Shown: positions 26,691 through 61,980 of the stretch, piece after piece
How the letters are laid out: the number at the start of each line of letters is the position of its first letter
Numbering within the stretch: position 1 is the stretch's first letter
From: Euglena gracilis
Lineage: Eukaryota
DNA: 64,000 nucleotides
Assembly: GCA_039621445.1 (NCBI GenBank)
Contig: CP154954.1
Coordinates: forward strand, 24,192,954 to 24,256,953
Reading direction: 5' to 3'
Position numbers and translations under genes: made by a program
Notes under the pieces: model-generated
Seen by the model: only the letters and a program-made list of their open reading frames with translations
Database searches by the model: none
What the model was told of the DNA's origin: nothing

Positions 26691-26857
26691 GGGGTGAATG
26701 TTGCAGGTGCTTGGGTTGACAAAAAACTGTTTAAGGATCTTTTCCCAGGGAGCTTTTCCTAGGGCAAGGCAAAACATCTGAAGCATGAAAGGAGCAAACT
26801 ACTTGTGCAGGACATCACGATGGGGGTGCTACCCCCGTGACCCCCCCCCCCCGTGAC

Positions 26858-27205
26858 CAGGGTTCGATATAAGGAGGGCGTACATGGTTTAGGTGGGGGG
26901 GGTGTCCCCCCCCACCCCCCCCCCCTCCGACCCTCGGGGGGGTTCCCGGGACCCCCCCCAAAAAGGGTCAATTTTTTCCTCCGGCGCTTCGAGCCGAAAT
27001 TTTTTTGCATTTTTGGCACATTTTTGCCCCAAAAGTGCCCAAAATGGCACTTTTGGTCGTTTTGGGGGGTCAAAAAATTTTCGGTCACCCAGACCGCGCC
27101 ACTGTTTAGGTGGGGGGGGGTGTCCCCCCCCCCCCCCCCCCCCTCCTGGCCCGCAAGGGGGGGGTCCGGACCACCCCCCCCCACCTGTCCTTATATCGAA
27201 CCCTG
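26858..27205. mobile_element. hAT-type MITE, 8-bp TSD
   Basis: CCCGTGAC|CAGGGTTCGATATAAGGA...TCCTTATATCGAACCCTG|CCCGTGAC. Confidence 0.92.
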
Positions 27206-39100: not shown

Positions 39101-39660
39101 ACAAGGGTTGAAAATGAAAATCCCTTACAAATATTTTGCATTTTGAGGGGGCGGAATACTCCCCCCTGACCTGGGCCTCAATTCGGGCTATTTTCTCTGC
39201 AAATAACGTTGTGAAGTGGCCTCCTCGGGGGGGGGGGTGCCCCCGCACCCCCATCAAATAGCAAACTCCTGTTGTGCTGACAACACTCTTGGGGGGTCTA
39301 GTCCTTGTTGTGGGTGATTTTGACTGGGTTGTGCTTGCCGCTATATGGAAAATCTCATGGGAAGAGGTAAAATTTTGCTAAAAAGTGGCCAAAACGTATA
39401 TTTTTATCCAAAACTATTGCAATATTCACCCCGTCTGGGGGACGTGTATTTCGGGGGTTTTATTTTTTGGGGGGGGTTTACATTGTAAGGTAAATGCCAT
39501 CAAGTAAAGATGCATCCCATGCCCTCATTCACAAGAAATGTGAAGCTCAAGCCAACACTGCAGCATATGCACGGTGCCCTGGGTTTAAGGACGAGAATCG
39601 ACCAAACAAAGAATTCCGAGGGGAGCGGATCACACTTAAGGAGTCCACCGCATCTTTCTG
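36112..39660 (+). CDS. C1 (PKC-type zinc finger) domain in two exons (36112-about 36225; about 39521-39660)
   Basis: MSQHQLVLTCFHGPRYCTFCNEFIFGLTYQGFACTQCG + ALIHKKCEAQANTAAYARC gives the H-x12-C-x2-C-x13-C-x2-C-x4-H-x2-C pattern; pyrimidine tract/CAG at 36103-36105 just before the ATG. Confidence 0.8.
37563..37712 (-). mobile_element. Gypsy RT fragment
   Basis: Matches 3703-3853 (GPFGVCKIE). Confidence 0.8.
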
Positions 39661-39810
39661 GTTTTGGATCTACAAGATTTATTTATTTGTGCGCAGAAAC
39701 AAGAAATATTTTTGCTTATGCTTCCTGTTTTCCATTTGTGAGTGGAGCGTGACTTTGATGAATGACCAAAGCCGATGTCATTTTCAAAGCATCATGGATG
39801 GAATGTTTCA

Positions 39811-40690
<880 letters not shown>

Positions 40691-40691
<1 letters not shown>

Positions 40692-40920
40692 ACACTTCCA
40701 AAAGTGTGATTTCAGAGGAAGCGGTGCCAGAGTTCAAAACGCCTTGTATTTTCGAATTGTTTGCTGAGAAGTGTTTACTGATCATCAAGAAGAGTTCACG
40801 AATCGAGGGCCACAAAACGACCAACGTCTCCATCAAGACTCTGAAGGTGGTGGCGGTGGATCCTGACAGAATTGAATTGACATATGATAGCAAATGCCGA
40901 CTCTACCGGCTGGAAAATCG
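40691..40920 (+). CDS. Probable internal exon(s), possibly a PH-like fold
   Basis: Open protein-like frame [17 protein letters not shown]...[26 protein letters not shown]; boundaries unresolved. Confidence 0.45.
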
Positions 40921-42023
40921 TACAGTGCGTGTCGGTCATCTTGCTTCATTTCTCAATGCTTGTTTGAGAAGGATGGGGGGGGGGGGGGGGGGGGGGGGGG
41001 ATATTAACTCGTGTTGGCCTATTTTTTTTTTTCATTGTGGGAATGTTTGCATTTCCGCTTGAATTGTGGGTGTGTTGCCATACTTTTCGTTCTCATTCCC
41101 CCCTTTTTTTCTCAGATTGGTGTCGCAGTAGTGTTGTCTGATCATTTAATAATCTTTTGCTTTTCCACATGATGGTTTCTGTGCGGTCTTTCTTCTCAAA
41201 CCCCTTCCAGATGTATCCCCACTTATTATTTCAGAAAGTCAGCCGACCCCCCACCTGGCTTTATTTCAAACCCAAGCAAAGGACATTGATGATTCCCTTT
41301 TTGTCCATGCCAACACCATTCATTTGCTTTGGCTTGAAGCTTCTTTTTTCCCAATGAAGTGGAAGAGCAGGGAGGCATGGAAGACTCTTTCTTATCATGC
41401 CTTGCAAATATCAAGGAGGCCTTCGGACGTCCTTTTCCTCTGCGTGTCAACTCTGCCGGTTTGGACTTTGCTCATTTGAAACGTGGATTGTTTCATTTTG
41501 GCACGTTCTTGCACATTGTAGTCGTTCAAATGGAGTTGTATGCACATCAGCCCTCAACGAAACACCATGTCGAAGCACAGGTCTTCTTTTCCCTTAGTGG
41601 TGATAGAAATAAAGAATATCATATATGTCTAAATGGCGGTTGGTTCCAGCCAAAAGCCATTCAAACTCACTGGGGGGCACTTCAAACTCAGCAGTGTGAA
41701 ATGAACGTCCAACAGAAGATGCTTCGGATGGGTGCTTCGTCAGGTACCCAAAGGCATTTGAGCCCTTTAAGCCCTGGATGTCGTCGGGCTGGGCCCGTTT
41801 GGATACAGAACGGGGTATTTTTAAGCTGGCGGGCCCCCGACTGGCTGGCCATGGATCCCCGGGGTCTAAAGAAATCCGCTTAATCATATGAAATTTCCCA
41901 ACCCAAACCCAACTTAGTGGTATATTTAAACCAAAGTTTTATTGCACCATTTTACTCAGCCCAAGGGATGTGTTTCACGTTTTTTCCGCATTTTTTTCCC
42001 GCATTTTTTTGCAAATTTCCAAG

Positions 42024-42332
42024 CTGGCTGTATTTTAGTCGGGTGCCGACCCCACCCCGGGGGGGGGGGGTGTCTGCAGGCACTCCAAGGCACTCTCAAT
42101 CCGACCCCCCCTCCCGGGGGGGGGGGGTAGGGCACACGGCCAAAAGTGCCCTAGCACAACCCCGGCGCCAAAGGAACCGGGGAACCAAAAATAGCCTATT
42201 TTCAAAGGAATGTGTCTCTGCACAGGCCGAAATCCGACCCCCCCCCCCGGGGCGGGGGTTGTGCCTGCCTGAGCAGGCACTCACAGGCACTCCGGACCCC
42301 CCCTCCCCCCGGGGTTGGTTGCCGACAGCCTG
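42024..42332. mobile_element. hAT-type MITE, 8-bp TSD
   Basis: TTTCCAAG|CTGGCTGT...ACAGCCTG|TTTCCAAG; same family as 50124-50423. Confidence 0.88.
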
Positions 42333-45026
42333 TTTCCAAGTACGATTTTTGAGCATGTTTTTAGCGTTTTTTGCGCGTTTTTCAATTTTCTTTCCAGCAC
42401 ATTTCCTTTTTTTGCTTTTTGACGCATTTTTTTTCATTATTTGCCAAAATTTCGCAATGTCAGATTTTTTTGGCCATTCCCCCCTTTTTTTGCATTTTTT
42501 TTTGTATTTTTTGAACTGACATTTTGCTCATAATTCAATACGTGAGCAATTCGATTTTCAGACTTTTGCACTTTCTGCCAGAATTTGCACATTTTTGCGC
42601 ATTTTTTTCGAGGCTTGGCTGGCGCATTCCTGCCTCCCCTGATTTGCCACAGCAATTTTGAAAGTGTGCGCTGCGACTGTCGCGCCCCCATTCAATTTCT
42701 TCTTGAATTTTTTTGTTGTGTAGTTTTTTGTAAGTTTTTTTCAGTTTGTGTCGTTCTTCACCATGTCAAAGAAGTTCTGTGCCGCATCCACCGCGACAAA
42801 ATGCTCATATTTTTTTTAGAATAATGAGAATGATTGTGCAGACTACATTACAAATGAAACATAACTTCCCAGGCAGTCCCCTGATGCAGAAAACTGTCTG
42901 GGAGGTTGAAAAATGGAATTTCTGCACAGCCCAGTCATTAATGACATTTGCATTTGCGGACACCTGAAGAATGGCAAAGCCATTCGTTGGGCAAAGCCCG
43001 ATTCCAGTACCCTGCCCAGTCCGTCTTCATCAGGAAACATTGGCAAGAGGATGGCCTTGGTTTGTTCTGTAACCCTATGCGGATGCTGGCACCCTTGATT
43101 TCCCACCAACCTGCCCTTCCCAATGACTTTCTTCGCATTGTGATCGGATCCTGAAGGCAAGTTCAAAAACATCTTCAAAACCTTCAGTAGGATCCGTGTC
43201 GAATTGTGTGTGTGTGTGTGCACCCCCAAGGCAAGGGTGTATTCCAAAGGTGTATACTTTCACCCCAGCTCATTACCCCCCCCCCCAGGTTGCTGGGGCC
43301 AGTGTCATTATCCCCCCTTAAAGGGTTTGGCTTGGTTGCTCCCTTGGCCATTGGTGGCAACATGCCCCCCCCCCGCCAGGCTGTGCGGAAATCCCTGAAA
43401 CCCTATGGGCGGTGGTTGGGGAGTCGACCCCCCTCCCTGCTGGGTGGGGGGCGACCCCACCAGCACCAGGCCTTGTTATATTTTCTGGCGCCGATTTTTA
43501 GGTCACAATCTTCCTTCGGCGCCGAAGGAATTTTTCCTTGTGGGTTGTGTGGTGGGTGGGTGGGGGTCGACCCCCATTTTGCCAGAGGGCCTGATGGCGA
43601 GGTCGACTCCCCTCCCCAGACCTTCCCGTACATCCCCCCCCCCCCAAGTTTGACCACAGTGGTTTCCCCAATCGATTCCCCCCCCCCCCTAACCAGTATT
43701 CCCCTCTTTGGCCGAGGGTAAAAGAACTGTCATTTGGGGGGGGGGGAGGGTACGTCATGTTGGGGAGTGAATGTGGTGCATGACTTTTCAGCCCTGCCTT
43801 GTGCTGTCGTGGTGGGCCTGTGGCCAGTCCACACAATCACCTGGTCACTGGCCGACCCCCCCCCCCCCCCCGAGGGTGAGTGACTGGTTTTATCAGAGTG
43901 ATTGACTGGTTTTTTTCTTGGCCCGGACCCCCTCCCCCGGGGGGGGGGGTCGGCAAAAAACCACCAAAGTGACCCGGCGCCGAAGGCACTGGAAAACTTT
44001 TTTTTGGCTTTTTTTCACGTTTGTGGTCAAATTTCCTTTGGATTCCAGAGCGGCCGACCCCCCCAGGGGGGGAGTGACTGACTTGTCTTCCAAAAAAGAG
44101 ACTTACTGGTTTTGGAAAGAGTGGAAGTGACCCCCCTCCTCCCGGGGGTCGGTAAAGAACTGTATGGGCCAGCCTCTTTACTCAGTAATGGATCAAACTC
44201 TGTACATGGCCTGACTACCGTGGCTTCTGTGTCATTCACGCAAACAAAAATGCCCCTCAACCATGCAAAAGCGTCGATTACTTTTCATTTCTAAGAAAAC
44301 CAGCAAACACTGTTAAACAGAAGAATATATGGTGTCTCCACTGTTCTCATTCATCTTTTTTTTTCCATTCGCAGCCCAGAAACAAAAAGCCTGTTCCTCA
44401 ATACAGCTCCTAAGGTTATTGGATGGGCAATTTTAATATTTGGGCGGTCTGCAGCGAAATTGAAATCAATAAAACACCATTTCCAATAAAGGAAACACGC
44501 AAAATTTGAAGAAGAAGTATAAGAAAGTGGAGGCAGTGATTTGGTCAAGGTGACCAATTTGGGCTATAAACTGGCCAAACATGGCCCCAAATCAACCAAA
44601 TTGGTCATCTTGACCAAATCACTGCCTCCACAGCCAGCGCTAACAGGGTACGTCACCCACCCAGTATTGACCACCTCGCCCCCTTGCATGGGCTGTGGAT
44701 AGTGACAAACAAAAGTCACAAATTGGAAAAGTTTACAACTTGCTTCAGATTTGCACAAAGCCCTGTGGCAGTGGTGCTGTGCGGGGCGGGGCTGTGCTGG
44801 TGAACACACCATCACCACAGCCCATGGGCTAACATGGGCTTTGGGCTTGGGGTTGAGTACCACCCACAAAGTCAAGGGGGTATACAAATGATTCGGCACA
44901 CTGTGCAAATGCAAACACATATGCATATGCAAATACAAATGCAAGTGCACATACAAATACAAAACATGGACACAAACACAAATGGAAATACAAATTGCAG
45001 ACACAAATGCAATACAACACAAGTCC

Positions 45027-46150
45027 AGTACAGCACAGCACAGTACAGTACGCACACAGCACAGTACAGTACGCACACAGCACAGTACAGTACAGTACAG
45101 TACAGTACAGTACAGTACAGTACAGTACAGTACAGTACAGTACAGTACAGTACAGTACAGTACAGTACAGTACAGTACAGTACAGTACAGTACAGTACAG
45201 TACAGTACAGTACAGTACAGTACAGTACAGTACAGTGCAGTACAGTGTACAGTACAGTGCAGTACAGTGTACAGTACAGTGCAGTACAGTGTACAGTACA
45301 GTGCAGTACAGTGTACAGTACAGTACAGTACAGTACAGTACAGTACAGTACAGTACAGTACAGTACAGTACAGTGCAGTACAGTGTACAGTACAGTGCAG
45401 TACAGTGTACAGTACAGTGCAGTACAGTGTACAGTACAGTGCAGTACAGTGTACAGTACAGTACAGTACAGTACAGTACAGTACAGTACAGTACAGTACA
45501 GTACAGTACAGTGCAGTACAGTGTACAGTACAGTACAGTACAGTGTACAGTACAGTACAATGTACAGTACAGTACAGTGTACAGTACAGTACAGCACTGT
45601 GTACCAGGCTTCTTTTTAAGTCACCCGACCCCCCCCCCCCTGGGGGGTGGGTGGGTGGGTCCGGGCCGGACCCCCCCGGGGGGGGGGGGGTCCCGCGCCG
45701 GAGGCGCTGGGTATACCTTTTCGGTGCGAAGCGCCGAAATTTTTTGAAAATTGCCTTTAACGGGCCCGATTTTTGGGGGGGGGGTCCCGCCCCCCCCGGG
45801 GGGGGGGGCCCGCGCCACCCTGGGTGGGTGGGGGGACCGGACCCCCCCGGGGGTCTTAAAAAGAAGCCTGCTGTGTACAGTACAGTACAGCACTGTGTAC
45901 AGTACAGCACTGTGTACAGTACAAAGTGCAGTACAGTACAGTACTGTGTCCAGCACAGTACAGTGCTGTGTACAGTACAATACAGTACTTTGTGCAGTAC
46001 AATGCACTACAGTGGTGTCTAAGTGCAGTACAGTGTTGTGTCCATTACAGTCAGTACAGTACAATACCGTGTGCAGCACAGTACTGGATACAGCACAGTC
46101 AGGCTGGGGGTAAGGGTTAGGGTCAGTGCTGTGTACAGCACAGTACTGTG
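45027..46150. repeat. (CAGTA)n microsatellite, degenerate at the ends
   Basis: Direct repeats, interrupted by a MITE at 45605-45870. Confidence 0.97.
45605..45870. mobile_element. hAT-type MITE, 8-bp TSD
   Basis: CTGTGTAC|CAGGCTTCTTTTTAAG...CTTAAAAAGAAGCCTG|CTGTGTAC. Confidence 0.93.
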
Positions 46151-46884
46151 CTTCTGGACCATTTTGGCCAAGACCGCCAATTTTTTTTGTCCCCAATTTT
46201 CTTGCCTCCAATTTTTTTTTTGGCACCAATCCCTCCCCTGTACGCTCGCTACGCTGCACCACACTACCAGTGCAGTTCAGGCTTCTTTTTCAGTCTGAAG
46301 CCCCCTGAGGGGGAGGGGTGGGTGGGTGGGTAGGTTTTGGGCTGGATCCCCCCGGGGGATCCCAGGCCGGAGGGTTTGTGAAATTCTTCTAGTCCCCTCC
46401 AGCAAAAGTGCACTAATTCCCAAAACTGCAATTTCTACATTTTTTTCCTGCAGTTTTCCCGCAATTTTTACGAAGCCTTCTGATATCGATTCCCTCCTAC
46501 CTGAACTATGTTTCTCACAATATAATGTACATACATAAACCATATAATTTTACACAATAAATTTTGCAATTACAACTTCAATTACAATCATTCTCATAAT
46601 TGCAATTGCAATGAAGTACAACATAATTGCAATAACAAAAACAAGCACGCGAGCACGCAAGCAAGCAAGCAAGCAAGCAAGCAAACAAACAAACGAATGA
46701 ATGGTGATGGAGGCAAGTCATTCAATAAACAAGGATTTTGGGGGCATCTCCCTCCCTGTGTCAGACCACCCAAAGCCTTTTCTTTCTAGTGATGTCCTTG
46801 GTGTTTCTGCTCACACATGCACACAGTCAAACCCATGCACATTTTTTCCCATGATAACTTGAGAACTCCCTAATACAATGTTTG

Positions 46885-48621
46885 AGCATCCTGGCGCATT
46901 TTCTGTGCCTCAAGAACCGTGGCTTCTCACCACCCGCCGAAGGCTTTATCAGATCCGAAACCCTCGCCTTTGGTCTCTGCCCCCTCCCTCATTGGCTGGG
47001 AGGGTTCGACCCCTATGCTTTGCATTTAAGACGATCAACATCCAACCCCAAACAAAAAAGACCAAAAAATAAATCAAACAAAAAACAAAAAACAATAAAC
47101 AAAACAAAAAATAAATAACAAACAAAAAAATCCAACCCCAGTCGCATTGAACGCAGTGGAGACACCCCACCGGGAGGCGAAGCCGGGCCCTGGCAGCCAC
47201 GTGTCGCCCACCGGGGGCAGCTTCCGCAGCAACGTGAAGGTCCCGGTCCCCGGCGGGTCGGGAGGCCGGCTGTCGCCGAAGGCCCCGCCCTCCCCCCAGC
47301 CGGGGCGGGCACCAGTCACCCCCAGCAACCGCCTTTCCCCGAAGTCCCTGCCTTCCGACCAGGGGGACACAGGTCTCTGGGCTTTGACATTGCATATGAA
47401 CACCACTCAAAAAAGAGCGGAGAAAGGTGGAATGACTGGGGGGGGGGTGTCCGGGGTTCCTTTGATGCTGGGTGGATACCCAATAAAAATGGTAGAATTG
47501 TTTCCAATTCCAAAGTGCAAGTATGACCCCCTCGAGGGCGTTTTCGCTAGGTATTGCTGACTGCCCATTGACCCTTCATTTTTGGGACAATTCATGTGCA
47601 AAATTTTTGGGTAAAATCCTTTTGAAATAATTTCACAAGTTTTTAAGTACCCCCCCCCCAGTCGTACGACCACCCCTCATTTACGACCACTCCCCGGTCA
47701 CAGGTTGCAGGTCATGGGGGTTTTATGACCCCCCCCCCCCGGTCACAGGTTGCAGGAACCCGGTCATACGACTAGGGGGGGGGTATTACCCTGTGCTGTC
47801 GTCCAGTTGGCTCAAGGTGCTTATACATCCCAAAAATCATTTTGTATTTTATACATTTGGGTTGGATTCCTTTTTTCATTCCATGGCCCTGTGGCTTTGC
47901 CCAACCTCCGTGGGACTGCTCTCAGGCATCTGCAGGTAAGCACCATTTTCCATGCACGGAATACAATTACCCCCTTCCCCCCAAATGAACACCCCCCCCC
48001 TCCCCAGTAAAGTGCAATCTCAAACTACACCCCCGTCCCCCCTGCCCAGACAAGTTGGCCTGGGATGAAGCTAGTGGGACAGGGTTGTTCTGATGTTGGC
48101 CATGCGCCGAAGGTTGCTCAGATTAAGAACCCCTGGCACGCGGCCTAAATTTGGGTCCGAATTTGTTTTAATTGTGGCTTACGCCCAAATGCAATTCCTG
48201 ACAGGGTTGCATTTTGCATTGCATGCAAAGCGTGTCTTTTTTTTGGTCGCTCTAAACAGAAATGGCTTTATTGTTTTGGCACAATTTAGAAATTGGCCTG
48301 AACTTGACCAGTTCATATGTTACAAATGGAACATCACCAAAATTTTCCGGCCTTGTCCTGAATGGTTCTATCGACAGGCTTCACATGGCATCTCCACACT
48401 GCTGCCTCCACCCCCATGGGGACACCAACAGTGAGAAATGGGGGGTGATCCGCATTTTCCATTTTTTCCACATTAGAGTGGCTTTGGGGTAATATTTATT
48501 TCGGGGAGAGATTTAAAATCTGGAGGTCATTTTTTTTTGCAGAGACTCATGAAAAGTTGCCAAGCGAAATCAGCGCCAAAAAGCATTTTTACTCCAGGCA
48601 CACCCTTCATATTGTCGTTTT

Positions 48622-48656
<35 letters not shown>

Positions 48657-51600
48657 CTTTTTCTTTCACATTGTTTTTTTTTGATTTCACAATGCTTCTC
48701 CGTTCCTTTTTTCGAGCTTGCGTGCGTCTGTGCGCGTGTGCCCGGGTGCGCGGGTGCACCTGCCTGCCTGCAAGGCCTGCACCTTCGCCAACCCCCCGGA
48801 CAAGGACGCCTGCACCATGTGCGCCACCAAGAAAGGCTCCTCTGGGCCACGGCGGGAGAGCCCCTCGCTGCCGCTCCCTTCCGCCCCGCCGCTCCCCGCC
48901 AGTTCACCAGGGCCGGCGTCGAGGGGGGCTGAGCCACCCAATGGCAGTGAGCGAATGGAGGAGCTTTGGGCACCTGGGAGTGCCCGAAATGAATCCAAAG
49001 GTGACCGCCACCTCAGGCACCGGGTGGTGCGCTGTTAATTGGACCCCCACCTGTCTGATTTTTGTTTGTTTTTCTTCAGAGTTACCATTAAAACTCTGGA
49101 GGTGAATATATTATGTTATAAAATTGGGATTGGGACTGCTTTGGACAACCGGGGCTGTGGTTTTATTTAGACTCTGCGCTTGTGGCACCCTTCTATTGGG
49201 GGGGGGGGCGGGTTTAGCCGGGTTCAGGGGCTGCGAGTTGACATTTTTTTCTGTTGGACATTTCCCCCCCATTTTTCGTCACAAACCTCAGTTGGGGCGA
49301 ACTGGGTTTTCAGGCCGCCCGGAATTCTCCCTCTTTTGACTGCAGCTTGACACCTTCGGCTGGTCTGAGGGATCCGCTGACCTGATTCGACTGCAGCTTC
49401 CTATTCGCTTTCCAGCAACCTTTGGTAGGCGGGCGAGAAGGTTCCCGCCTTTTGGCCATCGCTGGAGGCCACCCCTGCTCCGTCGGCGGAGGGGCCGTGG
49501 GTGTGCGAGGTCTGCACACTGCGAAACCCGGCGACGCTGATGCAGTGCAGCGCCTGCCTCGCGCCCTGCCGGAGCAAAGACCCGTCGCAGTCCCTCGCAG
49601 GCCACCGGATCACTGCCCCCCCCTCCCCGAAATGGGGATGCCCAGCCCGGAATGCAGGTGGGGGGATGTGCAGATTTGTGCATTTCTTCAAATTGTACAA
49701 GAATCTTGTGTTTTTAACACGCTTTTCGGCATTTTTGCTGCATTTTTTGAACACTTTTTGGTTTTTCAGGTTTGTTTTTGCATTTTTTTTGTATTTCCCC
49801 CAATTTCACACATTTTTGCCTGTGTATTTTTTTGAAAAAAAGTTATATTTCCTTGTTTTTTTCTGTGTAATTTTTTTGAAAATTTGTGTTTTTTTTGTAT
49901 GTTTTGGGGTGATTTTTACATTTTTTTTTAACATTTTGATTTTTTTTGCATCCGCCCCCCCCCCCGCATGCACAGTTTGTGCATTCTTGCGCCCTTTGAG
50001 CATCATTGCCAGGGTACCGCATATCTCTGCAGAATGGCTTTCACTCCCTGTGCTTTCTCCCTCACAATTGACTTCTGCAACACTGCACTTTTTTCTGACC
50101 CCCCCCCCCAAGTAAGACCCCACCAGGCTGTATTTTAGTCGGGTGCCGACCCCACCCGGGGGGTGGGCAGGCACCCCAAGGCCCTCCAAATCCGACCCCC
50201 CCCGGGGGTAGGGGGGTAGGGCACACGGCCAAAAGTGCCCTAGCACAGACCCGGCGCCGAAGGCGCCGGGGAGCCAAAATGGCCTATTTCCAAAGGAATG
50301 TGCCTGGGCACAGGCCCAAATCCGACCCCCCCCCAGGGGGGGGGGTAGTGCCTGCCTGGGCAGGCACTCATAGGCACTCCGGACCCCCCTCCCCACCCCG
50401 GGGTTGGTAAAAAAAACAGCCTGGACCCCACCCCAGGATTTTCGGGAAAATCCAAAATATACACCACCGAAAACAGAAAAAGACCCCAAAATGGGTGATT
50501 TTTTCTACATTTTTTGGGGTTTTTTTTGCTCCTCTCAAATGTGTTGCAATTTGCATTTTTGGGGACAATTTGCATTCATTGCCAAAAATCACCTTTTTTG
50601 ACCTATTTTTGGGCCATCCTACCGGAAGGTTTTTTTCGGCTAAATTTTTCAAAAAAATTCAAAAAGTAGATAACCCCCCAAAATAAGACCCCCTGGGTCT
50701 TTTTAGCAACGGACCCAAAAAGCAGACCCAGGGTCTTTTTTGGGGGTGTGTTTAGTTGCAAGGACGCAATAATCTCATGAATTTTTGGACGTCAACGCCA
50801 CAAATGTAATGTGATAAAGGAAGTCCGAAACGAAAAGTTTCAGGGCTTCTATTTGGTACAGTTACAAATTTTCCTCTTTGAGGTGAGACGTTCCAATCAC
50901 ACTTTGGGTAAATTGCTGAGGGAGTATGTGGTTTCTAAATCTTGCCCCATCCCCTGCCATGGGGGGCTGCTGGCGAACTTCAACAACGACGCCGAGATCC
51001 AGAAGTATGTCCAGGCCAGGGTTGTATGGGAAGCTCCGCAGACATGAGGTAGGTGGTAGGGGGGGGTCACCCCCCCCCCCCAGGGGGGTAAGGTCTAAGG
51101 TGGTAGGGGGGGGGTCCCCCCCCAGTTTCGGAAGGGGGGGTCCCCCCCAGAGATTCCCATACAACCCTGGTCCAGGCCCAGAAGGATTTGCTACAGTTGC
51201 TGCGCGCGGGACGTCTGACGCAGGGCGCGTACCAGAAGATGGCGCCCAAGGCCTCTGCTCAATCCGAAACCATCCCCAGTGGGAGGGGGGTTCTCCATCC
51301 ACTCGACAGGGAGGGACAGGGTATTACGTGAGCGTTGGCTTTGTACAGGGTTTTTTTTATTTGTGGACCCCCGGGGGGGGGAGGAGGTCCACGAATAAAA
51401 GGGGGGGGTAGGGTGGGTGGGTCCGGCCGAGACCCCCCCCCCCTGAGGGGGTCCCCCCAGGGAGGAGTGGGTTATATTTTTCGGCGCCTTTGGCGCCGAA
51501 TTTTTTTGAAAAGGTGCTATTTTTAGCAATCTTTGGCCATTTTCAGGGAAAAGAAAGTGGGTTCCCCAGGACCCTCCCCGCGGGGGGGGGGGGCCCCCGG

Positions 51601-54600
51601 GCCCCCGGGGGGGGGGGGGGGGGGGGGGCCCCCCCCTCCCCCCAGTCTTTAAAAAAACCCCTGTCAGGAGAGGGGAAGGGCCTCTCCCGCGGACCCCCCC
51701 GGAACCAAAAGCATTTCTTCTCCGGGGCTTTGTGCCGGAAGACTGCTTTTTATCACATTTCTTTGTTCATTTGTTGAAAAGATTGCGAGTTCGGGCACTT
51801 TTTGAAGCCCCCCCCAGAATTTTTTTGGGCAGAAGGGGGAGGGGGGAAGGGGGCACCAGATCCCCCTTCCCCCCGAGAAGCAACCCGGGGGGTAAAAAAA
51901 AAACCTGCGCAAATCACTCTTCTTCTCCTGGGGAGGCGGGGGGTTCCGAGCAGGGCTTTGGCGGCGCAGGGGCTGCAGGCCTCCTCCTCCAAGCCGGGCC
52001 ACCCCGGCGCGGCCAGCCCGGCGGCGGTGAAGGACGCGTTCGAGCTGCCGCAGGGCGTGTCGGAATCGGTGCTGAGGTCCGCCTCCCTCCGCCCGCCTTC
52101 CAGCCAACCGAGCATCCCTCCCCGGCGGTGGGAATATGTTTGTGGAACAGACTTCCACGAAGCACTTGGCCGAAAATGTGACCGAATCCAATTTTTTTCC
52201 TGGCATGCTGGACCAAAAGCTGGAATCCATGACACGTCAGTCAAACCCTGTAGGTTTATTCCGGAGTGTCTGACTGGATTTTTTTTTTGCTCCGGACCCC
52301 ACCGGGGTGGGGGTCGGCCAGGACTGGCCTAAATTTCGGCGCCGAAGGCCCCAGAAATTTTGGGGTATCGACCAAAGTCTATTCATTTTTGGCCGTTATG
52401 GCCGAAATGGCCAAGTGACCCTCAGGGTCCTCCCCGAGGATGGGAAGTGGGTGACTGGTTTTTCAAAAGTAACTGACTAGTTTTTTGGAATGAACTCCCC
52501 CCTCCGGTGAAGACCTCCCTTCTGGAGATAAATTCTTTTCTTTTCCTGTGCTTTGTGCCCCATCCTGAAGAACGTCATTCTCCCTCAACCCTCTGTTATC
52601 CTGTGGCGCATTTGCTCAAAACGCCCACACTGGCCTGTTTCGATATCAGCAGTCTCCACCACATATGTCGCCTTGTGGCCCCAAATACCACCCTCCCTTG
52701 CTGAAAGAACACCACCCTTGTGTGGTGAACAACGGATAAACCGTCATTTCCCAGTCGCTGGTATTCCAGAGGTGAGGCATTCTTACCTTGGCATGTTCCT
52801 CGACCGCGAGGCGCATTGCCCCAGCGTCGATCTGGAACTCACAGGCCATTCCCGTGTGGCGACAGCTTGCTACCTGCTTGAAGTCGGAGTGCTTCAGGCG
52901 GCCTTCCACCTGCTTGTACTCCTTCTTCCATTTTTCCAACATCTCCAAGTCATTGACCACGGGACAGCCCCCCCCCCCACCACGGGTTGTTGATCACAGC
53001 TTAGTGGTCTTGGGACAAGCGAGGGTATGATTATGACACGGGGTCCTGTCTCTCGCAGGCAGTGGTATGACTGGGACACCAAGCGGTGGATGGAGGAGCA
53101 CGTGCAGGTGGTGGTGGACTGGCAGCCCCTGGCCCAGGGCAACCTCCGCGTGGCGGTGCGGATGCTGGACCTCTCCCGGCCAGGGTTAGACGGGGGGTTG
53201 GGGGTGGGGGGTGGCTGTCCCCGACCCCTTCCGCCTGCAAGGGATGTTCCTCTGAAGAAAGACTTTCCCGTTGGTGCCTCGTGCATCGGTCCAATTCAGC
53301 CCCGAATGATTTCCACAAAGTGCAACGCTGTCCTTTTTGGCAAGGTCGGAGGCAAAAATCAGTGATCCAGACTGCATTATTGGCCAGGTCGGGCTGTTCT
53401 CTGAATTCCACCCCCTGGGACTTGCGTTAAACCCTGCTCCTGGCCCAAGGGGCAACGGGCTTGTGTGGCAAAGTACCTGAAGGTGTTGCCTTATCTTGTG
53501 CCACGTGGCTCAGTCAAATTATCAAGTTGCTGAATGGTTTTTTTTTTTTTTTAAGTGTATTTATCTTTATTCTAATTCATTTATATGTCTGTAGATTTTT
53601 CAATTAACCAATACCTGCGAAAAGAGCACCTTATGATTCAATGTGGTTGTATTTTTCAGAGAGCCTTATTTTAAAAATCCTGTTTTTTTGAAAGCAGGAA
53701 AAACGAAAAGTTTAATTTTTAACAATGTTTGAGGGTGGCAGAGTACTTCCTGAATTGATATATCCCATTGCCGAAAGGAACTGGGAACGGCACAGTCCCT
53801 TCAGACGAGGGTGTTGCAGGCCCTCCTGAATACCACATATCTCGATTATCGATGCCTGGAGTTAGAGTCCAAGGCGTTTTTTTTCCCTTTCTGTTGGGTG
53901 TATTTTCCAAACTCAAAAAACTTCCAAATCCAAACCACTTCACCAGCTGCTGTGGGGTAACCCTAACACTCACCCCACATGAAATTGAAACCCTTCCTGA
54001 AATTCTGGTAAATCAGAGATGCCCCTCTTTTCAACGTACCCCATCGTTGTGTCATTCATGAACCTTGACCTCATGAACCTTGTCAACCTGTGACCTTGAA
54101 CTTGTGTCATTCATGAACCTTTCAATCTTCAAATGGTTCCCAATAAAATTAAAAAAAATGCCTGCTCCACAGAGAGCCTTGCGTGACAACCTGAAGAAGA
54201 AAGGTTTGGAGATAGGCTTAGGGTTACGGTGAGTTCTGGGTGGAGGAGTGGTTCTTTGAAGGAGGGAATAGATCCCGGAGTTACGTCAATTTTCTCTAGG
54301 GTTTTTTTTTAAAAAGTATGATGCCTGCTTCCGCTGTGGATGTGTCAGCCGAAGTTGGTCTTTTGTGGGGGGGGGGAGCTGGTTACCGGGAAAATAAAAT
54401 TTGAGCAGGAAAGAACGTTTCGCAAAAAGTTCTCGTATTTTTGTCAGGATTTCCAACGTGGTTGATGCAGAATTTTCAACTCCAACTTAACTCTGCCAAG
54501 GATGTGATGATTGCTGTTATGATTGCTCCAATAAGATAGCAAAAATTTCAGTCCCCTCCCCCACAGTGTTGCAAGGAGTTTTCTGTGTTCAAAATCTCAG

Positions 54601-57438
54601 GGCTGGGAAAATCATAAGATTTTGGAGGTAATTCTCATGGATATTGCCAGAAGAGCAATTTTGGAATTTTTCAATCCAGAATCTTCCGGACTTTTTCCAG
54701 TTTTGTCCAATATTTCCTTCTTTTCTTGTCATTGATCATTGATCGCCCCCATACAGATTTATGCCCCCAATCACAGTTTTGAAAGGGGGACACACACCTT
54801 TGTTCACTGCTTTGCGGAAACGCTGGAGGGCACTCCCCGACCCCTCCCAGATTTCTTTTTAATCAAGGTCGCAGGTGGGTGGGTGCTCTGTGCAGGAGGG
54901 GAGGCAAGCACTTTGGACCCCCCTGGGGGGTCGGGTTTTGGGGTTGGTAATGTAATAGCACACCCCCTGGCACCGAAGGTGCTGGGGGCCAAAAGTGGCC
55001 ATTTTCAAGGGAAATTGACTTGGCCGGGTCCCAAATCCAACCTCCTGGAGGGAGGGTTGCTTTGGGAGGCGCCCCATAGGGCAAGGCACCCCTCCCCCCC
55101 CCCTCAGGGTTGGTAAACAGAAGCCAGACCCCTCCTCCACGGGGGAGGGTGGTGGATTTTTGAGAGCGGGTGGGTGGGTGGGTGGATCGCTGGCCAACCA
55201 CACCTCGGTCCACCATGGGTCAATCTGGCCCGGCCAAAGGCCAGGCCGGATAGTTTTTCAAGGGTTTCCGGCCAATTTTTTGGTGGTTGGGTGGGTGGGT
55301 CGACCCCCGGGTGGGGGGAATCGTGGGTGGGTGGGTTTTCAAAAGGGGGTGGGTGGGGTTGGGCCCAGGAAAAGTGCATTAGTGAAACTGTGGTCGGGAT
55401 GTGCGCCACCCCAAGTTCCGAGTTGCACCACAGGACCCCCCCCCCCAAGCGGCGCCTGGGGTTTCCGTCGCTCTGCACAGCCGGAGCACTACGACCCGAA
55501 GGAGGGGGACCAGCAGTACTTCGTGGACGTGGAGATGCAGGCGCACTGTCGGGCAGTGGCGGACGCCTTCAACGCTGCCCGGCCGCCGAAGGAGGTCTCC
55601 TTCTTGGAGGCCGGGCCTTTCTCTCTGGGAGCTCACTCCCCCCCCCCCTTCCCCCAATGGTTCGGTCGGTCCCCACCGAGGACGGTTTGCCTCCAGTGGC
55701 TGGGATGCTCCACACCCGGCTCCGTCAAGATAACCCATTTCCCCACCTATGGGGGTCCTTCCTTTTGGCTCGCTGGCCAAAAAACCATCCGGACAATGTC
55801 ACCTGGTCTCAATCTAGGGGCAGAGTGAATGGAAAGATGCCACCATTCACATTTCACATTAAAATGGATATGATGTCAGGTGCCATTTGGAATCCGTCTG
55901 GGCATTGGCGGTGCTCCCTTTTCGCCAACAGATGAACCCTCATTCGCACTTGTGCCGTCACTTGCTCTGGGCTGAATTTCAAGGTGCGGCCGACCCTACC
56001 CTACCCTGCTGGTACCCCAAGGTACTCCAATACCCCTCTCCCCCAGGGTTTGCCAAATCCAGCCTGCCCCATTGTTGTGGTTGGTACCCTGTTTTTGGAG
56101 GCCTGTCGTTTTGGGCAGAGGCCAGTGTTACCCTTCCCATTGACGTGTGATATGCCATCGTTGGACAAACTTGTCAGCTGGCTGTAGGTGTCTACCTGTT
56201 TGGGGTTGCTAGGAAAGAGGAACAGGGCTCGTCGCAGGCATGGGTGATCTGCCGCTCTGGCAACGTGCTACCAAACCAACGGGTGTGCTTTGTTTGCCTT
56301 CGTGCATTTCTCGGAAGAGCTCAAAGTTCCCCAAGAAAGAGTATGATTATCAATTCAGCCTTTTAACCTTTCTCTGATAATTTGGCTTATATCATACTTT
56401 CATGTTTTGGATAAGTTGGATTATATTTCATCTTACAAATTTGGGAAAGCGCTATTTCCCTTCATAAAATGTCTAATGGAGTGTATTATTTTTTGTGCTC
56501 TTCCGTAAGAGGTTCCTATGTGTCCCCCCTCTGATGGTTTCCTGCCTCTCTGTGTGGCCTCAGGTCCTCGCAGCCGAACCGTATATTGACCCCACAAGCT
56601 ACTTGAAGCACAACAACAACCACACATCACCCCCCGTTTTGCCTCTGTGCCTCACTTCACGCACAGGGGAGCACACACCAGCCGGTGGACCAGCCCCAGG
56701 ATGGGGTGATGTGTGGCCCCAATTGGGGGTTTGTTCATCCCCTGGCCCGGAACACGCCGCAGGCGTTCTCCCATTTCTCCTGGGAGTACACCCAGCACCG
56801 ATTCATGATCGTCAGCCAGGCTGTCAGGCAGATGGATATCCGCCCGATGCCGCAATTTTTTTTATTGGCATCCCTGTCCCCCAGATGACCTCCTGTCGCC
56901 TCATGTCTGCCCGCTGTGGTTTCAGTGGCGCATTTCCCCTCCGGCCTCATTCTGTTTTGTCACCCGAGCCTTTCGCCGGCAGCCTGCCTGGGATATCCAG
57001 GGAGTGGGGGACGTGTACACGGACCCCCAGATCCACAGTGCGACCCATGCAGTTGCTTTGTGCCTTCGGTGTCGATTACTTACGCCGCTCCTGGGTGCGG
57101 GGTGGTTGGCGGGCAGGACCCTGGGGGATTCTCCGACTACAACAAATGGTAATGGCTGGGGAGGCTGTTTTGTCAACATTGGGGGGAGGGTGGTATCTGA
57201 GTTCCTTTGGGTAGTACGAAGGTTCTCATCACCCATTCTGTAGTCCGCAGGGTTGAACGCCATTTTGCCCAAACATCAGCTGAATTTGCTGTGCAGCCCA
57301 AATTTTCATTGGAATGGCCTGGGGGGGGGGGTGGGTTGACGGAGGGGGATCAACTGCATGATTGAAAAGGACCCTGATATTTTCATTTTGATTGAGGAAG
57401 CACCCACCTCCCATTGGACAGAAAAAAATACACTGTGG

Positions 57439-57476
<38 letters not shown>

Positions 57477-57719
57477 CGCTGAGCTTGCCTCGACCCTCTC
57501 CTGTGGTGGGCACATGTATGGCGCTGACGACGATGGAACGGGGAAGGGACCCTGGGGGATGGGCAACTGCGGCATGGAGGCCAGGCTTTGAGCACCGTAT
57601 TATCACCCCACCTGCAAGTGCACGAAACACCAATGAATACTCAGCACCCAGCAAGCAAAAAGAACACAGACAACACCCCCCCCCCCATACACCCACCCAC
57701 CCACCTGCACGCACCCACG

Positions 57720-57776
<57 letters not shown>

Positions 57777-60700
57777 ACGCACTCACTCACTCTGACACAC
57801 ACACGCACGCACACACACACACACACACACACCCACCCACCCACACGTGTGCAATTTCGGATGGATGAAAATGCATGCACAATTCTCAAATAAAAAAAAT
57901 CCATAAAACAGGGCATTTTAGAAACAACAAGAAAGTGGGTGTATCTTCGTTCAGTTTTGGATTGAATATGAATGAATATTGCTTTCTGATGCTATTTTAA
58001 TTTTGATCGGACAGGACATTAAAGTTTGCAAAAAGCTGGTGTTTTGTGTGTGTGTGTGTGTGAAATGTTTTCCTGATCTGATGAACGACGAATAAAAGGA
58101 CAGCCCACATCTCTTGGCTCCCCCGGTTGTGTGGAGGCCATGCAAGTAGGACACCTCTGATTCCCTGGTTCCGCCGCAGGATATTCTGACATTTCAACCC
58201 CACCCCCACTGATCCCCCCCCCCCCCCCACTTATACCCCCCCCCCCTCGGGCCGACCAACCAAACCGGATCCTATAACCCCCCCCCCCCCCGGGGAAGAA
58301 AAATGGAAACCGCCGGGGACGATTTTTCCAGCCCCAAACCACCCAAATACTGATTTTTTGGCAATTTTTTTTTTTTGAGACCGACCATCATCAAAAATGC
58401 CATTTTGACGAAATATGCCGAAAATTGCCAATTTGGGGGGTTTCGGGTCATTTTGGGGGGGGGGTCGGATTTTCACCAACAATTCCGGATCCTATAACCC
58501 CCCCCCCCCTGCCGGCCGACCGGCCGACCAACCTGACCAGAACCTATAAACCCGGGTGGTTTATGTTTGTGTTGTGTTTGATCTTGATGTTAGGATGTTA
58601 GTTGATGTTGGAGTTTGAGTAGGGTTACAGTTAATTTTGGAATGTGGTTTGGGTTGTGGTTTAAGCGAGAAATTGGGGTGGGTTGGGTGTATCATGCCTA
58701 AATTTAGCCTGAATTAAGGCCAAAAATGTGGCTTTGAACTCCGACCAAAATTTTCGTCAAATTTTTGTGTTAATTTGCCAGATCTTTGAATACAACTTCT
58801 CACCCCAACCCAACTTCTATAATTAACCCTAAATCAGAATCGTGGGGAAGGTGGCCTCCAAAATGTTCTCCCGACACGGATTGCCTTCAAGGATCAAACA
58901 ATATTATTTTTATCATTGTTCATTTTCATCATTTTATTGAAGGCAACCATCTGCATTTCTTCTGCCAAGAAAATTCTCTCGCCAGAGAATGCCTTTTCAA
59001 ACAATTATTTTGGGGGTACAGTTTTTTTTTTTGGCCTGGTGTTGCTCCACCAGAAAACTGCTGTTATGGTCGTTGCGGCTGTTCAGATGGGGTCACCCGC
59101 GCCCCCATAGGGTGGAGGTGAGGTCCTTACCGACCCCCATGGAGGGGGGGTCGGTACGGTCGGTACGACCCCCTCGATGACGGCTGCCCCCTCCAAGCCT
59201 GCCGCTGGGCATCAACAAGTTCCTGGAGACCCACCACTGCAACGCCGTCTGCCGCGCGCTGGGCATCGCCCGGCCCTCCAAGGTCGCCGTCGCGCAGCCC
59301 ACCACGTCCTCCGGCACGCAGGTCGGCGGGCGACTCTCCGATGAAGAAATACAGAGGAATGGCTGCTGGCCGTTTGCCACCCACGCAGAAGTGTCCGCAG
59401 CCTATTTTGCGCGCGGGAGGTTTGCTCAGCAGGACGTTGGAAGAAAGAAATGGACGCGCTGCTTTAATAGCCCGCAAAGTTGTAGTTTTGGGTGCTGCCC
59501 TTATGGTTCAAAGGGCGTGGAAAGTTAGATTTGTAAAGTAAGTTAGTTTTCATTTCTTTTTTTTAAGAAATGTATTCTGTGCATTTTGTGTCACCAACGT
59601 TGGATCAATTTCTTTCCCTTTCTCTACCTCTTACATTTCAGGTACCGTTGAGGGACAACAGGAGCACTCCGGCGTGGAATTTCAAGCTTCATGACTTCGA
59701 CCAGCGAAACCCTCCTTCCGCATGCCGCCGTCATCTGGCCTCCCTGGCATTTCAAATCAAGCACCAAGCCTCGTCATTGGAATTAGAGGTTGGTTATGTA
59801 TCTGAAACTTCACACAAAAATTTCCCCCTCCCTGTTTTTGTCCTGTGTTTTTATCATGTATTATTTCATCTGTCCACAAACTTGACTTCAGGGCAATTTT
59901 GGTCCAGGTGTGCCCTAAGCACAAACTCTACAACTCTGCCTTCATTTGACAGCCTGGGCCGACCATGGTCCTTGGCTAAAGGAAGCCCAGACGATACCAG
60001 AGCTCCCAAAGAAGGTGCTCGCCTCCCTGTACAAGCTTTCTGGAGGCAAACTTGTTTAAGTGGACTCAGTGCACTAAATTGTTTTCTTCTCAAGTTTGCT
60101 GCCAAAAAAGCCAAAAAACTTGTTCCGTGCAATACCAATGGGTTGGGTTTTTTTCTTCTGTCCGCAAATTGTGTCTTTCCGTCAACACGGGGGGGGTGCT
60201 TAACCCCCCCCCCCCCTGTGTCAACGCCACATTCCCTGAAAAATGCCGTGTGTTGGATAGGGATGAGGTTGGGGATTTCTTCGCGATTCAGTGCCCTGAT
60301 CAACGGCTGCGTGTCTCCAGACCAATGAGCACAGGCGGTCCCTCAGTTTGCTAACGGGGCCGGGGAGCTTTCGCTGTGACCATCCGTGACCTGCGGCCGG
60401 TGCGGGACGGCATGGGCAGGGGCGGGTTCCCTGTCGTCTCAGGCAGAACTCTGCCGTGGCCGGCCACCACGGACCGGAAATGGGCAGGCAGCACCACTTG
60501 AAGAACTGGGGCAATGGAATGGGGCCATCCATAGCCGCCAGGGAAACTGCACACTGACACTGAAAGACAGGGGCAGAGGAAAAGCGGTGTTGAGGAACAG
60601 CGGTTTGAGCTTTGAAGGGCGGGGCAAAAGGGGGAGCACAAACAGAAATTGGAGTAACCGCCCTCCCCCAGTAGAAGCACGGGTGCGCTTATAGCGGACC

Positions 60701-61980
60701 GCCGCCTCTGGCAGCGGGGTTGCCTTCTATTTGGACCCTACCTCCGCGATTTTTGCTGGTTTTCTTCAGAAATCCCATGGGGGGGGGTTGCGCTTGTAGC
60801 GAACCGCCGCCTTTGGCGGCGGCGGCGGCAGGGGTGTACGCTTTTATTTCGACCCCGTGCTTGTAGCGGCCCCGTGCTTCTATATGCTGTTTGAGCTTAT
60901 CGTGCCATCATCATCACAAATCAATTGTGTGTTTTCCAGACTTGATGACTTTAGGGGTGTGTGGCTTGCTCTCCATGTGCTCCTCCCTCCCCTGTGGCCC
61001 AACGTTGGAGGATTTGTCCTTGTTGAAGATGGAGATGGAGGAGTTCAACCACATTGTGGACCTTTTCAACGGCCTCGATAAGGATGGCAATGGCGTGGTA
61101 TGGTCCCCTTGCCTCGGCTTTCTGTACCTTTGCATGTGGCAGGGCGCGGATGGCCCACACCCCATCACCATTTCAGCCACATCCTTGAGTGCCGGCTGAA
61201 AAAATGAGTGATATGTGGGGGATGATGGGAGCGGCGCGGCAGGGGAGCATGTTTGGTTTTAGCTTTCAGTTTCAGTTTCAGTTTGAGTTTTCCCGACGTG
61301 CAGTCAAGAGGACCGGGGCTGGGGTTGTGGTCCCAGCAGGGGTTGCTCTTCGGGCATTGGAACTCCCGAATGATGGGCAGGGGTCTGTGCGCAATTCGAG
61401 GGTGATGAGGATAGCCTGCAAATGAAACTCATTTTTATCAAGGAAACGATCCATAGAAAACGAACGCTTACAAAGTGTCTTTTTTTTGAGGGATGGGGTC
61501 GAGGGATTCATGGCATGATATTAATTTTTTGTGTTTTATGACTTTTTTGATTTATGTCTGATTTTGTGGTCCTTTGTGCAGTGGATGGTTTCAGCCACCC
61601 TCGAAGCTTTGCAGTGGCCGCTCGACGCTCTGCAGCCGGCCACCTTCACCTGAACAACATCGCCGCTTTTCTAAGGTCTCTTCCGCCAGGCACCCCTCCC
61701 CCCCCCCTTCACAGCTGACGCCGCGCAAAAAGCTCCACCGAGAGGGGGGTGAAAAAGGGGGGATGAAAAAAAGGGGGGGGAAAGGGGAAAAGGAAAAAAA
61801 AGCCACTCCCCCGCCCCCTGTCACAGCTTCGGACGGACGGTGGGTGGACGAGTGCTGTCCCGCATGGACTCCGCCACCTTTGCGTTCAACCGGGAGAACA
61901 CGCAGTACCTCCTGCAGCTGGCCCAGAGCTCCGAGATCTCGTTCAAGCAGTTCCTGCTGTGGTACAAGGGCGTGGAGTGA
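46885..61980 (+). CDS. Multi-exon alpha-kinase (eEF2K/MHCK family) with two RanBP2-type zinc fingers and a C-terminal EF-hand
   Basis: Exons approx 46885-46972, 47142-47380, 48767-49020, 49429-49651, 50962-51013, 51175-51251, 51959-52076, 53059-53177, 53442-53482, 55481-55609, 56238-56264, 56564-56617, 56721-56813, 56992-57037, 57521-57578, 59207-59321, 59642-59698, 60382-60413, 61001-61097, 61850-61980. Yields [77 protein letters not shown]. Confidence 0.88.
48767..49575 (+). CDS. Two RanBP2-type zinc fingers (separate exons)
   Basis: [18 protein letters not shown] and [20 protein letters not shown] match W-x-C-x2-C-x3-N-x6-C-x2-C. Confidence 0.85.
50124..50423. mobile_element. hAT-type MITE, 8-bp TSD, nested in an AATAAGACCC-family repeat
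   Basis: GACCCCAC|CAGGCTGT...ACAGCCTG|GACCCCAC. Confidence 0.9.
51014..51174 (+). mobile_element. MITE-derived intron (element 51017-51169, 16-bp TIR, perfect 8-bp TSD)
   Basis: GTCCAGGC|CAGGGTTGTATGGGAA...TTCCCATACAACCCTG|GTCCAGGC; removing 161 nt restores [17 protein letters not shown]. Confidence 0.88.
53178..53441 (+). other. Nonconventional intron, MITE-like, 7/8 TSD
   Basis: CTCCCGGC|CAGGGTTAGACG...CGTTAAACCCTG|CTCCTGGC; splicing gives [18 protein letters not shown]. Confidence 0.88.
55610..56237 (+). other. Intermediate intron (GC-AG with paired ends)
   Basis: FLE|AWVIC; TTGGAGGC vs TCGCAGGC flanks; CGGGCCTT can pair with AGGGCTCG. Confidence 0.75.
56618..56720 (+). other. Nonconventional intron (CAC/GTG variant, 14-bp terminal stem)
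   Basis: aacCACACATCACCCC...GGGGTGATGTGTGgcccc; splicing gives KHNN|NWGFV. Confidence 0.88.
56814..56991 (+). other. Nonconventional intron
   Basis: agcCAGGCTG...CAGCCTGcctgg; splicing gives FMIV|DIQG. Confidence 0.88.
57579..59206 (+). other. Nonconventional intron
   Basis: ggcCAGGCTT...AAGCCTGccgct; splicing gives [17 protein letters not shown]. Confidence 0.85.
57720..57846. repeat. (CA)n microsatellite; (CT)n at 57445-57472
   Basis: Direct repeats. Confidence 0.95.
59699..60381 (+). other. Nonconventional intron
   Basis: gacCAGCGAAA...TTTCGCTGtgacc; splicing gives KLHDF|IRDLRP. Confidence 0.75.
60414..61000 (+). other. Nonconventional intron (3+6 geometry)
   Basis: gggCAGGGGCGGG...CCCTCCCCTGtggccc; the EF-hand frame requires 6 rather than 5 nt after CTG. 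Confidence 0.55.

Follow-up and report, generated by a model that had tools for sequence, protein, structure and literature searches.

We analyzed a stretch of 64,000 nucleotides from Euglena gracilis (contig CP154954.1, positions 24,192,954 to 24,256,953; hereafter the window, whose first letter is position 1) that carries a gene for an alpha-kinase protein. Mapping of its product, P0001, defined 24 exon junctions (J1-J24), many of them at nonconventional introns. Two of these, here called introns 1 and 2, show all the features of an inserted DNA transposon, namely inverted ends enclosed by an 8-bp target-site duplication (TSD), with slight decay in intron 2. Most likely, both are MITEs (miniature transposable elements with inverted repeats) with CAGG(G/C)T ends that inserted into coding exons, generated an 8-bp TSD and are removed scarlessly by nonconventional splicing.

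Two introns with the anatomy of a DNA transposon

The features that define introns 1 and 2 are the following.

51014..51174, + strand: intron 1 (J11), nonconventional, 161 nt, equal to the element plus one TSD
51017..51169: MITE inside intron 1, 153 bp, inverted ends CAGGGTTGTATGGGAA, 16/16 perfect, 20/21 when extended
51009..51016: left TSD copy of intron 1, GTCCAGGC, 5 nt of exon and 3 nt of intron
51170..51177: right TSD copy of intron 1, GTCCAGGC, 5 nt of intron and 3 nt of exon
53178..53441, + strand: intron 2 (J14), nonconventional, 264 nt, with the element at 53181-53436 and CAGGGTT ends
53173-53180 and 53437-53444: TSD copies of intron 2, CTCCCGGC and CTCCTGGC, alike at 7/8 positions

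The published code for nonconventional splicing reads N3-CDG/CHG-N5-6|R, with a 5' spacer of strictly 3 nt and a paired stem (Nomura et al. 2025, PMC12501133). Intron 1 reads GGC-CAG, a 16-bp stem and CTG-GTCCA|G, in agreement with every element of this code, and the same holds for intron 2, whose inverted ends are perfect over 7 bp and paired at 10 of 12 positions. RNA folding of intron 1 gave a hairpin closed by its own ends, with a minimum free energy of -107.5 kcal/mol (z = -4.1; 0/200 shuffles as good). A second protein search returned P0002, a 110-residue unspliced genomic open reading frame (ORF) from another data set that reads into intron 2. Intron 2 thus exists beyond this assembly; as an unspliced frame, P0002 adds no independent evidence of splicing. 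Inverted ends together with a TSD at the intron borders were confined to introns 1 and 2, that is, to two of the ten introns of the gene whose 5' and 3' spacers sum to 8. A pattern scan of metagenomes for both inverted ends of the intron 1 element returned 0 matches.

Sister elements outside exons

We scanned the window for CAG-started inverted-repeat pairs and kept the 39 that passed filters on arm identity and low complexity. A perfect 8-bp TSD flanked four of them, against approximately 6e-4 expected: the body of intron 1 (51017-51169) and three elements outside exons.

26858..27205: MITE of 348 bp upstream of the gene, ends CAGGGTTCGATATAAGGA, TSD CCCGTGAC at 26850-26857 and 27206-27213
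45605..45870: MITE of 266 bp in intron J6, ends CAGGCTTCTTTTTAAG, TSD CTGTGTAC at 45597-45604 and 45871-45878
50124..50423: MITE of 300 bp in intron J10, ends beginning CAGGCTGT, TSD GACCCCAC at 50116-50123 and 50424-50431

An earlier note on this DNA had described free CAG...CTG MITEs with an 8-bp TSD, and these three, with inverted CAGG ends and perfect duplications, bear it out. An unbiased scan seeded with any inverted 9-mer recovered the same four elements as the only ones with a flanking repeat of at least 6 bp, once two microsatellite regions had been excluded. The inverted ends of the four span 16-23 bp. The 26858 element has the terminal heptamer CAGGGTT in common with introns 1 and 2, whereas the 45605 and 50124 elements have CAGGCT(G/T) ends, as do introns 4 and 5 (see below). 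Hairpin modules of G-runs and C-runs and GGCGCC-type palindromes recur inside the elements, and an internal module of the 26858 element is 87.5% like intron 1.

For the 45605 element we also identified an empty site: the reconstructed 16-mer stands uninterrupted at 45891 and 45908, in adjacent units of an ACAGT-type satellite. This paralogous empty site fixes the TSD at exactly 8 bp and the termini as CAGG...CCTG. A 9-bp duplication had been considered, given that the base next to the right TSD copy is C in 4/5 elements, and was rejected since the empty site assigns this C to the element. Collectively, the shared ends, the duplications and the empty site indicate that these are true DNA-level insertions of a transposon family, intron 1 among them.

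Absence of six nonconventional introns from the protein product

P0001 is EukProt EG_transcript_3313, a protein of 745 amino acids that was 100% identical to our query, ORF 51107-51331, over its exon part; the name points to an E. gracilis transcriptome as its origin. It was placed on the window by seeds and tblastn, and every split point between adjacent blocks was tested exhaustively. The earlier note had proposed six introns in the alpha-kinase gene, introns 1 and 2 and the four listed here.

56618..56720, + strand: intron 3 (J18), 103 nt, CAC...GTG ends, perfect stem of 13-14 bp, TSD 4/8 (chance level)
56814..56991, + strand: intron 4 (J19), 178 nt, CAGGCTG ends, TSD 1/8
57579..59206, + strand: intron 5 (J21), 1628 nt, CAGGCTT ends, TSD 3/8
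59699..60381, + strand: intron 6 (J23), 683 nt, CAGCGAAA ends, TSD 2/8

All six proved correctly placed: at the protein level each is missing from P0001, which matches the tested flanks of every junction with 0 mismatches. Introns 3, 4 and 5 split conserved alpha-kinase motifs, which read KHNN|NWGF, FMIV|DIQGVG and GNCGME|GINKF, respectively. In the range 51009-61000 covered by that proposal, P0001 reveals 14 introns, five with GT/GC-AG borders (J13, J15, J16, J17 and J22) and nine non-canonical, so that the intron list was right for its six members and had missed three further non-canonical introns.

51241..51967 and 57038..57525, + strand: non-canonical introns J12 and J20, from P0001 mapping
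60414..61000, + strand: nonconventional intron J24, N3-CAG...CTG-N6|A, spacer sum 9, with one P0001-compatible position only

The note had placed the start of the paired ends 3 nt after the donor and their end 5 nt ahead of the acceptor, and they were found there in 6/6 introns, with Watson-Crick pairing from +4 to -6 and perfect terminal runs of 16, 7, 13, 7, 7 and 8 bp for introns 1-6. Stems end in CAG...CTG in 5/6; intron 3, with CAC...GTG, keeps the CA/TG core and departs from the CDG rule. In the N3/N5 register the borders are other than GT/GC-AG in 6/6 introns (intron 1 is also slidable to GC-AG), and the first downstream exon base is always a purine (G, G, A, G, G and A). The helix of introns 1 and 3 can be extended one pair further outward.

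For the TSD we compared the left 8-mer (5 exon and 3 intron nt) with the right 8-mer (5 intron and 3 exon nt) of each intron. Identity for introns 1-6 was 8/8, 7/8, 4/8, 1/8, 3/8 and 2/8; with window composition, the chance per comparison is 1.5e-5 for 8/8 and 3.9e-4 for 7/8 or better. The duplication is therefore, as had been claimed, perfect in intron 1, nearly so in intron 2 and at chance level elsewhere. P0001 is compatible with 10, 6, 5, 2, 3 and 2 junction positions for introns 1-6, respectively. Since junctions slide in this way under protein mapping, the 3|5 register is for some of the introns a choice, one that is backed by the published code and that is unreadable from intron 1 itself. 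In the paper that sets out this code, 84.4% of introns were classed as slidable and set aside, and the origin of nonconventional introns was called unclear (PMC12501133).

A proposed scheme for scarless removal

A MITE that inserts into an exon would leave, on the sense strand, the arrangement t1-t8 | CAG...CTG | t1-t8, where t1-t8 are the bases of the TSD. Nonconventional splicing would then recognise the hairpin with its CAG...CTG stem and cut twice, 3 nt upstream of where the stem starts and 5 nt downstream of where it ends, so that both cuts would fall between t5 and t6 of the TSD copies. The excised piece would be t6-t8, the element and t1-t5, or the element plus 8 nt. With both cuts between t5 and t6, the exon junction would read t1-t8, exactly the pre-insertion sequence, and an intact protein would result.

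For this scheme we take the insertion anatomy, the non-exonic sisters, the empty site and the protein from our own data, and the 3/5 cut rule and its sufficiency from the literature, where synthetic 50-bp introns built only on the rules of the code are spliced (PMC12501133). For introns 1 and 2, anatomy and P0001 lend good support to the scarless removal of a MITE together with one TSD; for the other introns, which the proposal in the earlier note also covered, it is plausible. We expect intron 1 to be spliced in this haplotype as well.

Origin of the remaining nonconventional introns

Among the 19 non-canonical junctions of the gene, ten combine a terminal helix with a spacer sum of 8 (J1, J2, J5, J8, J11, J14, J18, J19, J21 and J23). 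J8, one of them, lies upstream of the six introns discussed above.

47920..48771, + strand: nonconventional intron J8, N3-CAGGCA...TGCCTG-N5|A

It is plausible that the four older introns among the six, and nonconventional introns generally, began as MITE insertions as well, and two compositional biases are of interest here. A C occupies position +3 in 11/14 junctions that can be placed in the N3 register (P = 3.5e-5), and a G occupies +7 in 8/10 CAG introns (P = 5e-4). At the MITE insertions themselves, the eighth TSD base is C in 5/5 cases (26850, 45597, 50116, 51009 and 53173; P = 9e-4). As the published code leaves the spacers free, the biases at +3 and +7 fit inheritance from CAGG-ended elements with a preference for targets ending in C. 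A preference of the splicing enzyme could also produce them.

Several observations weigh against this reading or against the scheme as a whole. Nine of the 19 non-canonical junctions lack a spacer sum of 8: two fit N3/N6 (J10 and J24, sum 9) and seven fit neither form, with sums of 10 at J7 and 6 at J9 and no clear terminal helix of the N3/N5 kind at J3, J4, J6, J12 and J20. Residual TSD similarity in the eight older sum-8 introns is at chance, with 21/64 matching positions (permutation p = 0.19; cross-pairing controls gave 2.29/8 matches, or about 18/64). Intron 3 has a perfect stem of 13-14 bp, yet CAC/GTG ends and no TSD. No close copies of the six intron bodies were found within the 64 kb window, and no DNA transposase among its 65 ORFs of at least 170 residues or among nine window ORFs scanned with Pfam. 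The evidence for splicing is one transcript-derived protein, from another data set and with several residues different from the window; its source could simply lack the young insertion of intron 1. Finally, a CAG-ended MITE of another kind shows that a CAG hairpin need not go with an 8-bp TSD.

This last element belongs to a class that duplicates TA.

30315..30764: second-class CAG...CTG MITE, 450 bp, 16-bp perfect inverted ends, TA duplication

Its ends begin CAGCGTCACC, and it interrupts a gypsy-like retrotransposon fragment in the part that codes for the chromodomain. No 8-bp repeat flanks it; the flanks read GGTA|element|TAAG. With the element taken out, they align at 90% with an intact paralogue at 648-909 on the - strand and have precisely 2 extra nt where the element had inserted. 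It appears to represent a second class of elements with CAG ends, similar to Tc1/mariner. Were such an element to insert into an exon, an N3/N5 cut would take 6 nt of exon and keep the frame, since 8 - 2 = 6 costs exactly two codons; any TSD length equal to 2 modulo 3 keeps the frame in this way. The TA class thus weakens the proposal that the splice consensus is hAT end geometry and favours a broader link of the splicing system to transposons with CAG ends. In that broader form, splicing would in effect act as an 'excision' at the RNA level that fits the staggered cut made by these transposons, most of the roughly 70% of Euglena introns that are nonconventional would derive from MITEs, and the conserved C at +3 would preserve, as a fossil, the transposon's target preference. 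We put this forward tentatively.

The earlier note had read the six introns as an age series. The data do not bear this out: of the ten sum-8 introns, two have a TSD and the other eight lack one, and there is no graded decay (21/64, p = 0.19). Stem quality cannot serve as a clock either, as intron 3 keeps its stem in the absence of a TSD and stems are under splicing selection.

The equality 3+5 = 8 might reflect compatibility rather than cause, a possibility that is real if on the doubtful side. The splicing machinery would cut any CAG...CTG hairpin, and MITEs with an 8-bp TSD would merely be the ones whose removal is scarless; most of the older introns would have come from other MITE classes, by conversion of conventional introns or by RNA-level re-insertion. 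The eight older introns without a residual TSD and the nine junctions without a sum of 8 agree with this account, as do the TA-duplicating MITE, whose N3/N5 removal would delete 6 nt in frame, a published proposal that conventional introns can be converted (PMC3935182) and the toleration of a 6-nt 3' spacer (PMC12501133). Two points stand against it: in their shared CAGG(G/C)T termini and their C at +3, old introns agree with young MITEs and the target preference of these to a degree that the code does not demand, and both exonic elements with a TSD lie in the correct register. On balance, we suggest that the 3+5 geometry and the 8-bp duplication may be causally linked, beyond being compatible.

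Transposon superfamily

The MITEs had been labelled hAT in the earlier note. This name is not supported as it stands: it relies on TSD length and CAG ends only, no transposase was found in the window, and Merlin elements with an 8-bp TSD are published for the species. Ends that start with CAG are typical of hAT elements such as Ac/Ds, hobo, Hermes and Tol2, and those of Merlin begin otherwise. An 8-bp TSD and inverted ends 10-25 bp long are described for hAT elements (PMC3942097), and both traits are found here, with four elements at 8/8, one at 7/8, and short inverted ends. The duplications carry T at position 2 in 3/5 cases and A at position 7 in 3/5 cases, a weak agreement with the hAT target consensus.

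The same mechanism could have operated with MITEs of Merlin or of another superfamily with 8-bp TSDs such as P, and we regard this as somewhat unlikely. Two families of Merlin elements are reported in the draft genome of E. gracilis, where they have 8-bp TSDs, inverted ends that are nearly perfect and DDE motifs that are conserved, and the elements described here fall within the Merlin TSD range of 8-9 bp (PMC8101967). An 8-bp TSD and ends of 10-25 bp are not exclusive to hAT, and no hAT-like ORF is present among the 65 listed ORFs of at least 170 residues or the nine scanned with Pfam, whose domains are reverse transcriptase, integrase and chromodomain. What speaks against Merlin is the CAG start of the ends, which is typical of hAT and unlike that of Merlin. 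The superfamily may be hAT, Merlin or another.

Alternative accounts of introns 1 and 2

Intron 1 could be a very recent insertion, possibly specific to a haplotype or strain, that is unspliced here, with P0001 stemming from an allele that lacks it. The perfect TSD, the 16/16 inverted ends and the residue differences between P0001 and the window at several sites would all fit. We nevertheless consider this account improbable, since intron 1 conforms to the whole of a code that is sufficient with synthetic introns: GGC-CAG, a stem of at least 12 bp, CTG-GTCCA and a following G (PMC12501133).

It is very improbable that the 8-nt repeats arose by repair of staggered double-strand breaks with filler DNA and no transposase, as has been proposed for an E. 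agilis gapC intron with 8-nt repeats (PMC4770533), because the end motif, the TSD length and the internal modules recur at three non-exonic sites, one of them with a clean paralogous empty site, which is the signature of a transposon family.

The gene and its surroundings

The gene that hosts these introns spans much of the second half of the window.

36112..61977, + strand: E. gracilis gene encoding a protein of 745 amino acids with C1, RanBP-zinc-finger, alpha-kinase and EF-hand domains (P0001 mapping and Pfam)

Pfam assigned a complete Alpha_kinase domain (PF02816) to residues 425-610 of P0001 with E = 3e-47, together with C1 (PF00130), two RanBP zinc ribbons (PF00641) and an EF-hand (PF13405). 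Residues 696-704 (LTPDEVVAM) found no match between exons 61002-61097 and 61855-61977. A 6-residue match of residues 696-701 at 62196-62213 is out of order, with E = 0.64, and was taken as chance. The unplaced residues could reflect a micro-exon, an allele difference, or a problem of assembly or transcript. Single-residue differences between the window and P0001 (I/S, L/P and V/A) occur at 43039-44183 (J5), 47357-47898 (J7) and 59208-59324, which suggests allelic or strain variation between assembly and transcriptome.

Several introns of the gene are rich in repeats. The ACAGT-type satellite at 45082-45600 and 45871-46000 lies inside a gene intron and hosts a MITE, and a TA/TG-rich microsatellite occupies 39800-40620, also inside a gene intron. 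MITE-type modules of G-runs, C-runs and GGCGCC fill introns at 50430-50740, 51340-51650, 52290-52420, 54880-55370 and 58200-58540; these module-filled introns, both conventional and nonconventional, suggest that numerous older MITE insertions lie nested in them.

Upstream of the gene, the DNA is likewise repeat-rich and includes a nested palindrome of about 1.1 kb at 28427-29515, with perfect arms of at least 14 nt at two nested positions. The CAG-started palindromes at 28427-29515, 28512-29430 and 44534-44624 were rejected as MITE candidates: they are not CAG-terminated, and by eye their flanks continue the palindrome. The window also contains a Ty3/gypsy-like retrotransposon, which encodes an integrase and a chromodomain besides its reverse transcriptase, and two copies of another element bearing a reverse transcriptase.

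59-5332, 8539-10606 and 14025-16984, - strand: retroelement regions; the two copies share long near-identical ORFs

Significance and comparison with known systems

The origin of euglenid nonconventional introns, and the reason why the cuts lie 3 and 5 nt from the hairpin, have been open questions since the 1990s. These introns make up 71.8% of E. agilis introns (PMC12501133) and leave independently of the spliceosome as circular RNA (PMC11282704). A MITE origin was proposed in 2014 (PMC3935182), a review of 2024 called the ends terminal inverted repeats and the junction repeats TSD-like (PMC11282704), and a paper of December 2025 still finds a MITE origin plausible (PMC12621601). A strain-specific new gapC intron of E. 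agilis with 8-nt direct repeats was read as the product of break repair (PMC4770533). In the open full texts searched, we found no statement of the link between 3+5 = 8 and TSD length, no free sister copies and no superfamily name.

Here, one gene and its neighbourhood hold an intron still recognisable as a transposon with an intact TSD, a second that is slightly decayed, and, outside exons, sister copies. This sharpens the published hypothesis of a MITE origin in a concrete and testable way. If it is true genome-wide, the geometry of the published splicing code would be explained, and Euglena would be the clearest case of host RNA processing that neutralises exonic insertions of DNA transposons.

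Among DNA transposons, the elements resemble hAT MITEs in their 8-bp TSD, short inverted ends and CAG start, and differ in that no transposase was found in the window and that the match to the hAT target consensus is weak. With the Merlin elements of E. gracilis (PMC8101967) they share the species, the 8-bp TSDs and near-perfect ends; unlike them, they are accompanied by no IS1595-type transposase in the window. The introners of Micromonas, Aureococcus, dinoflagellates and others are likewise DNA transposons with inverted ends whose TSD contributes splice sites and whose removal restores the exon (PMC11282704). Those introns are spliceosomal, with GT/GC-AG supplied by the element or the TSD, whereas the introns described here follow a hairpin-measured, non-GT-AG code, and their six bodies have no close copies within the 64 kb window.

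Intron 4 of gapC in E. agilis ACOI 323 is similar in being a recent gain with 8-nt direct repeats at its junctions; it was interpreted as break repair, and in the excerpts of that paper no transposon family or free copies are shown (PMC4770533). The closest relatives are the euglenid nonconventional introns at large (Milanowski 2014, 2016; Nomura 2025), with non-GT-AG borders, CAG at +4..+6 and CTG at -8..-6, spacers of 3 and 5 nt and a downstream purine. All six introns studied here belong to this group, intron 3 with CAC/GTG ends. Whereas the origin of the published examples is called unclear or 'MITE-like', two of the introns described here carry an intact or near-intact 8-bp TSD and have sister elements outside exons.

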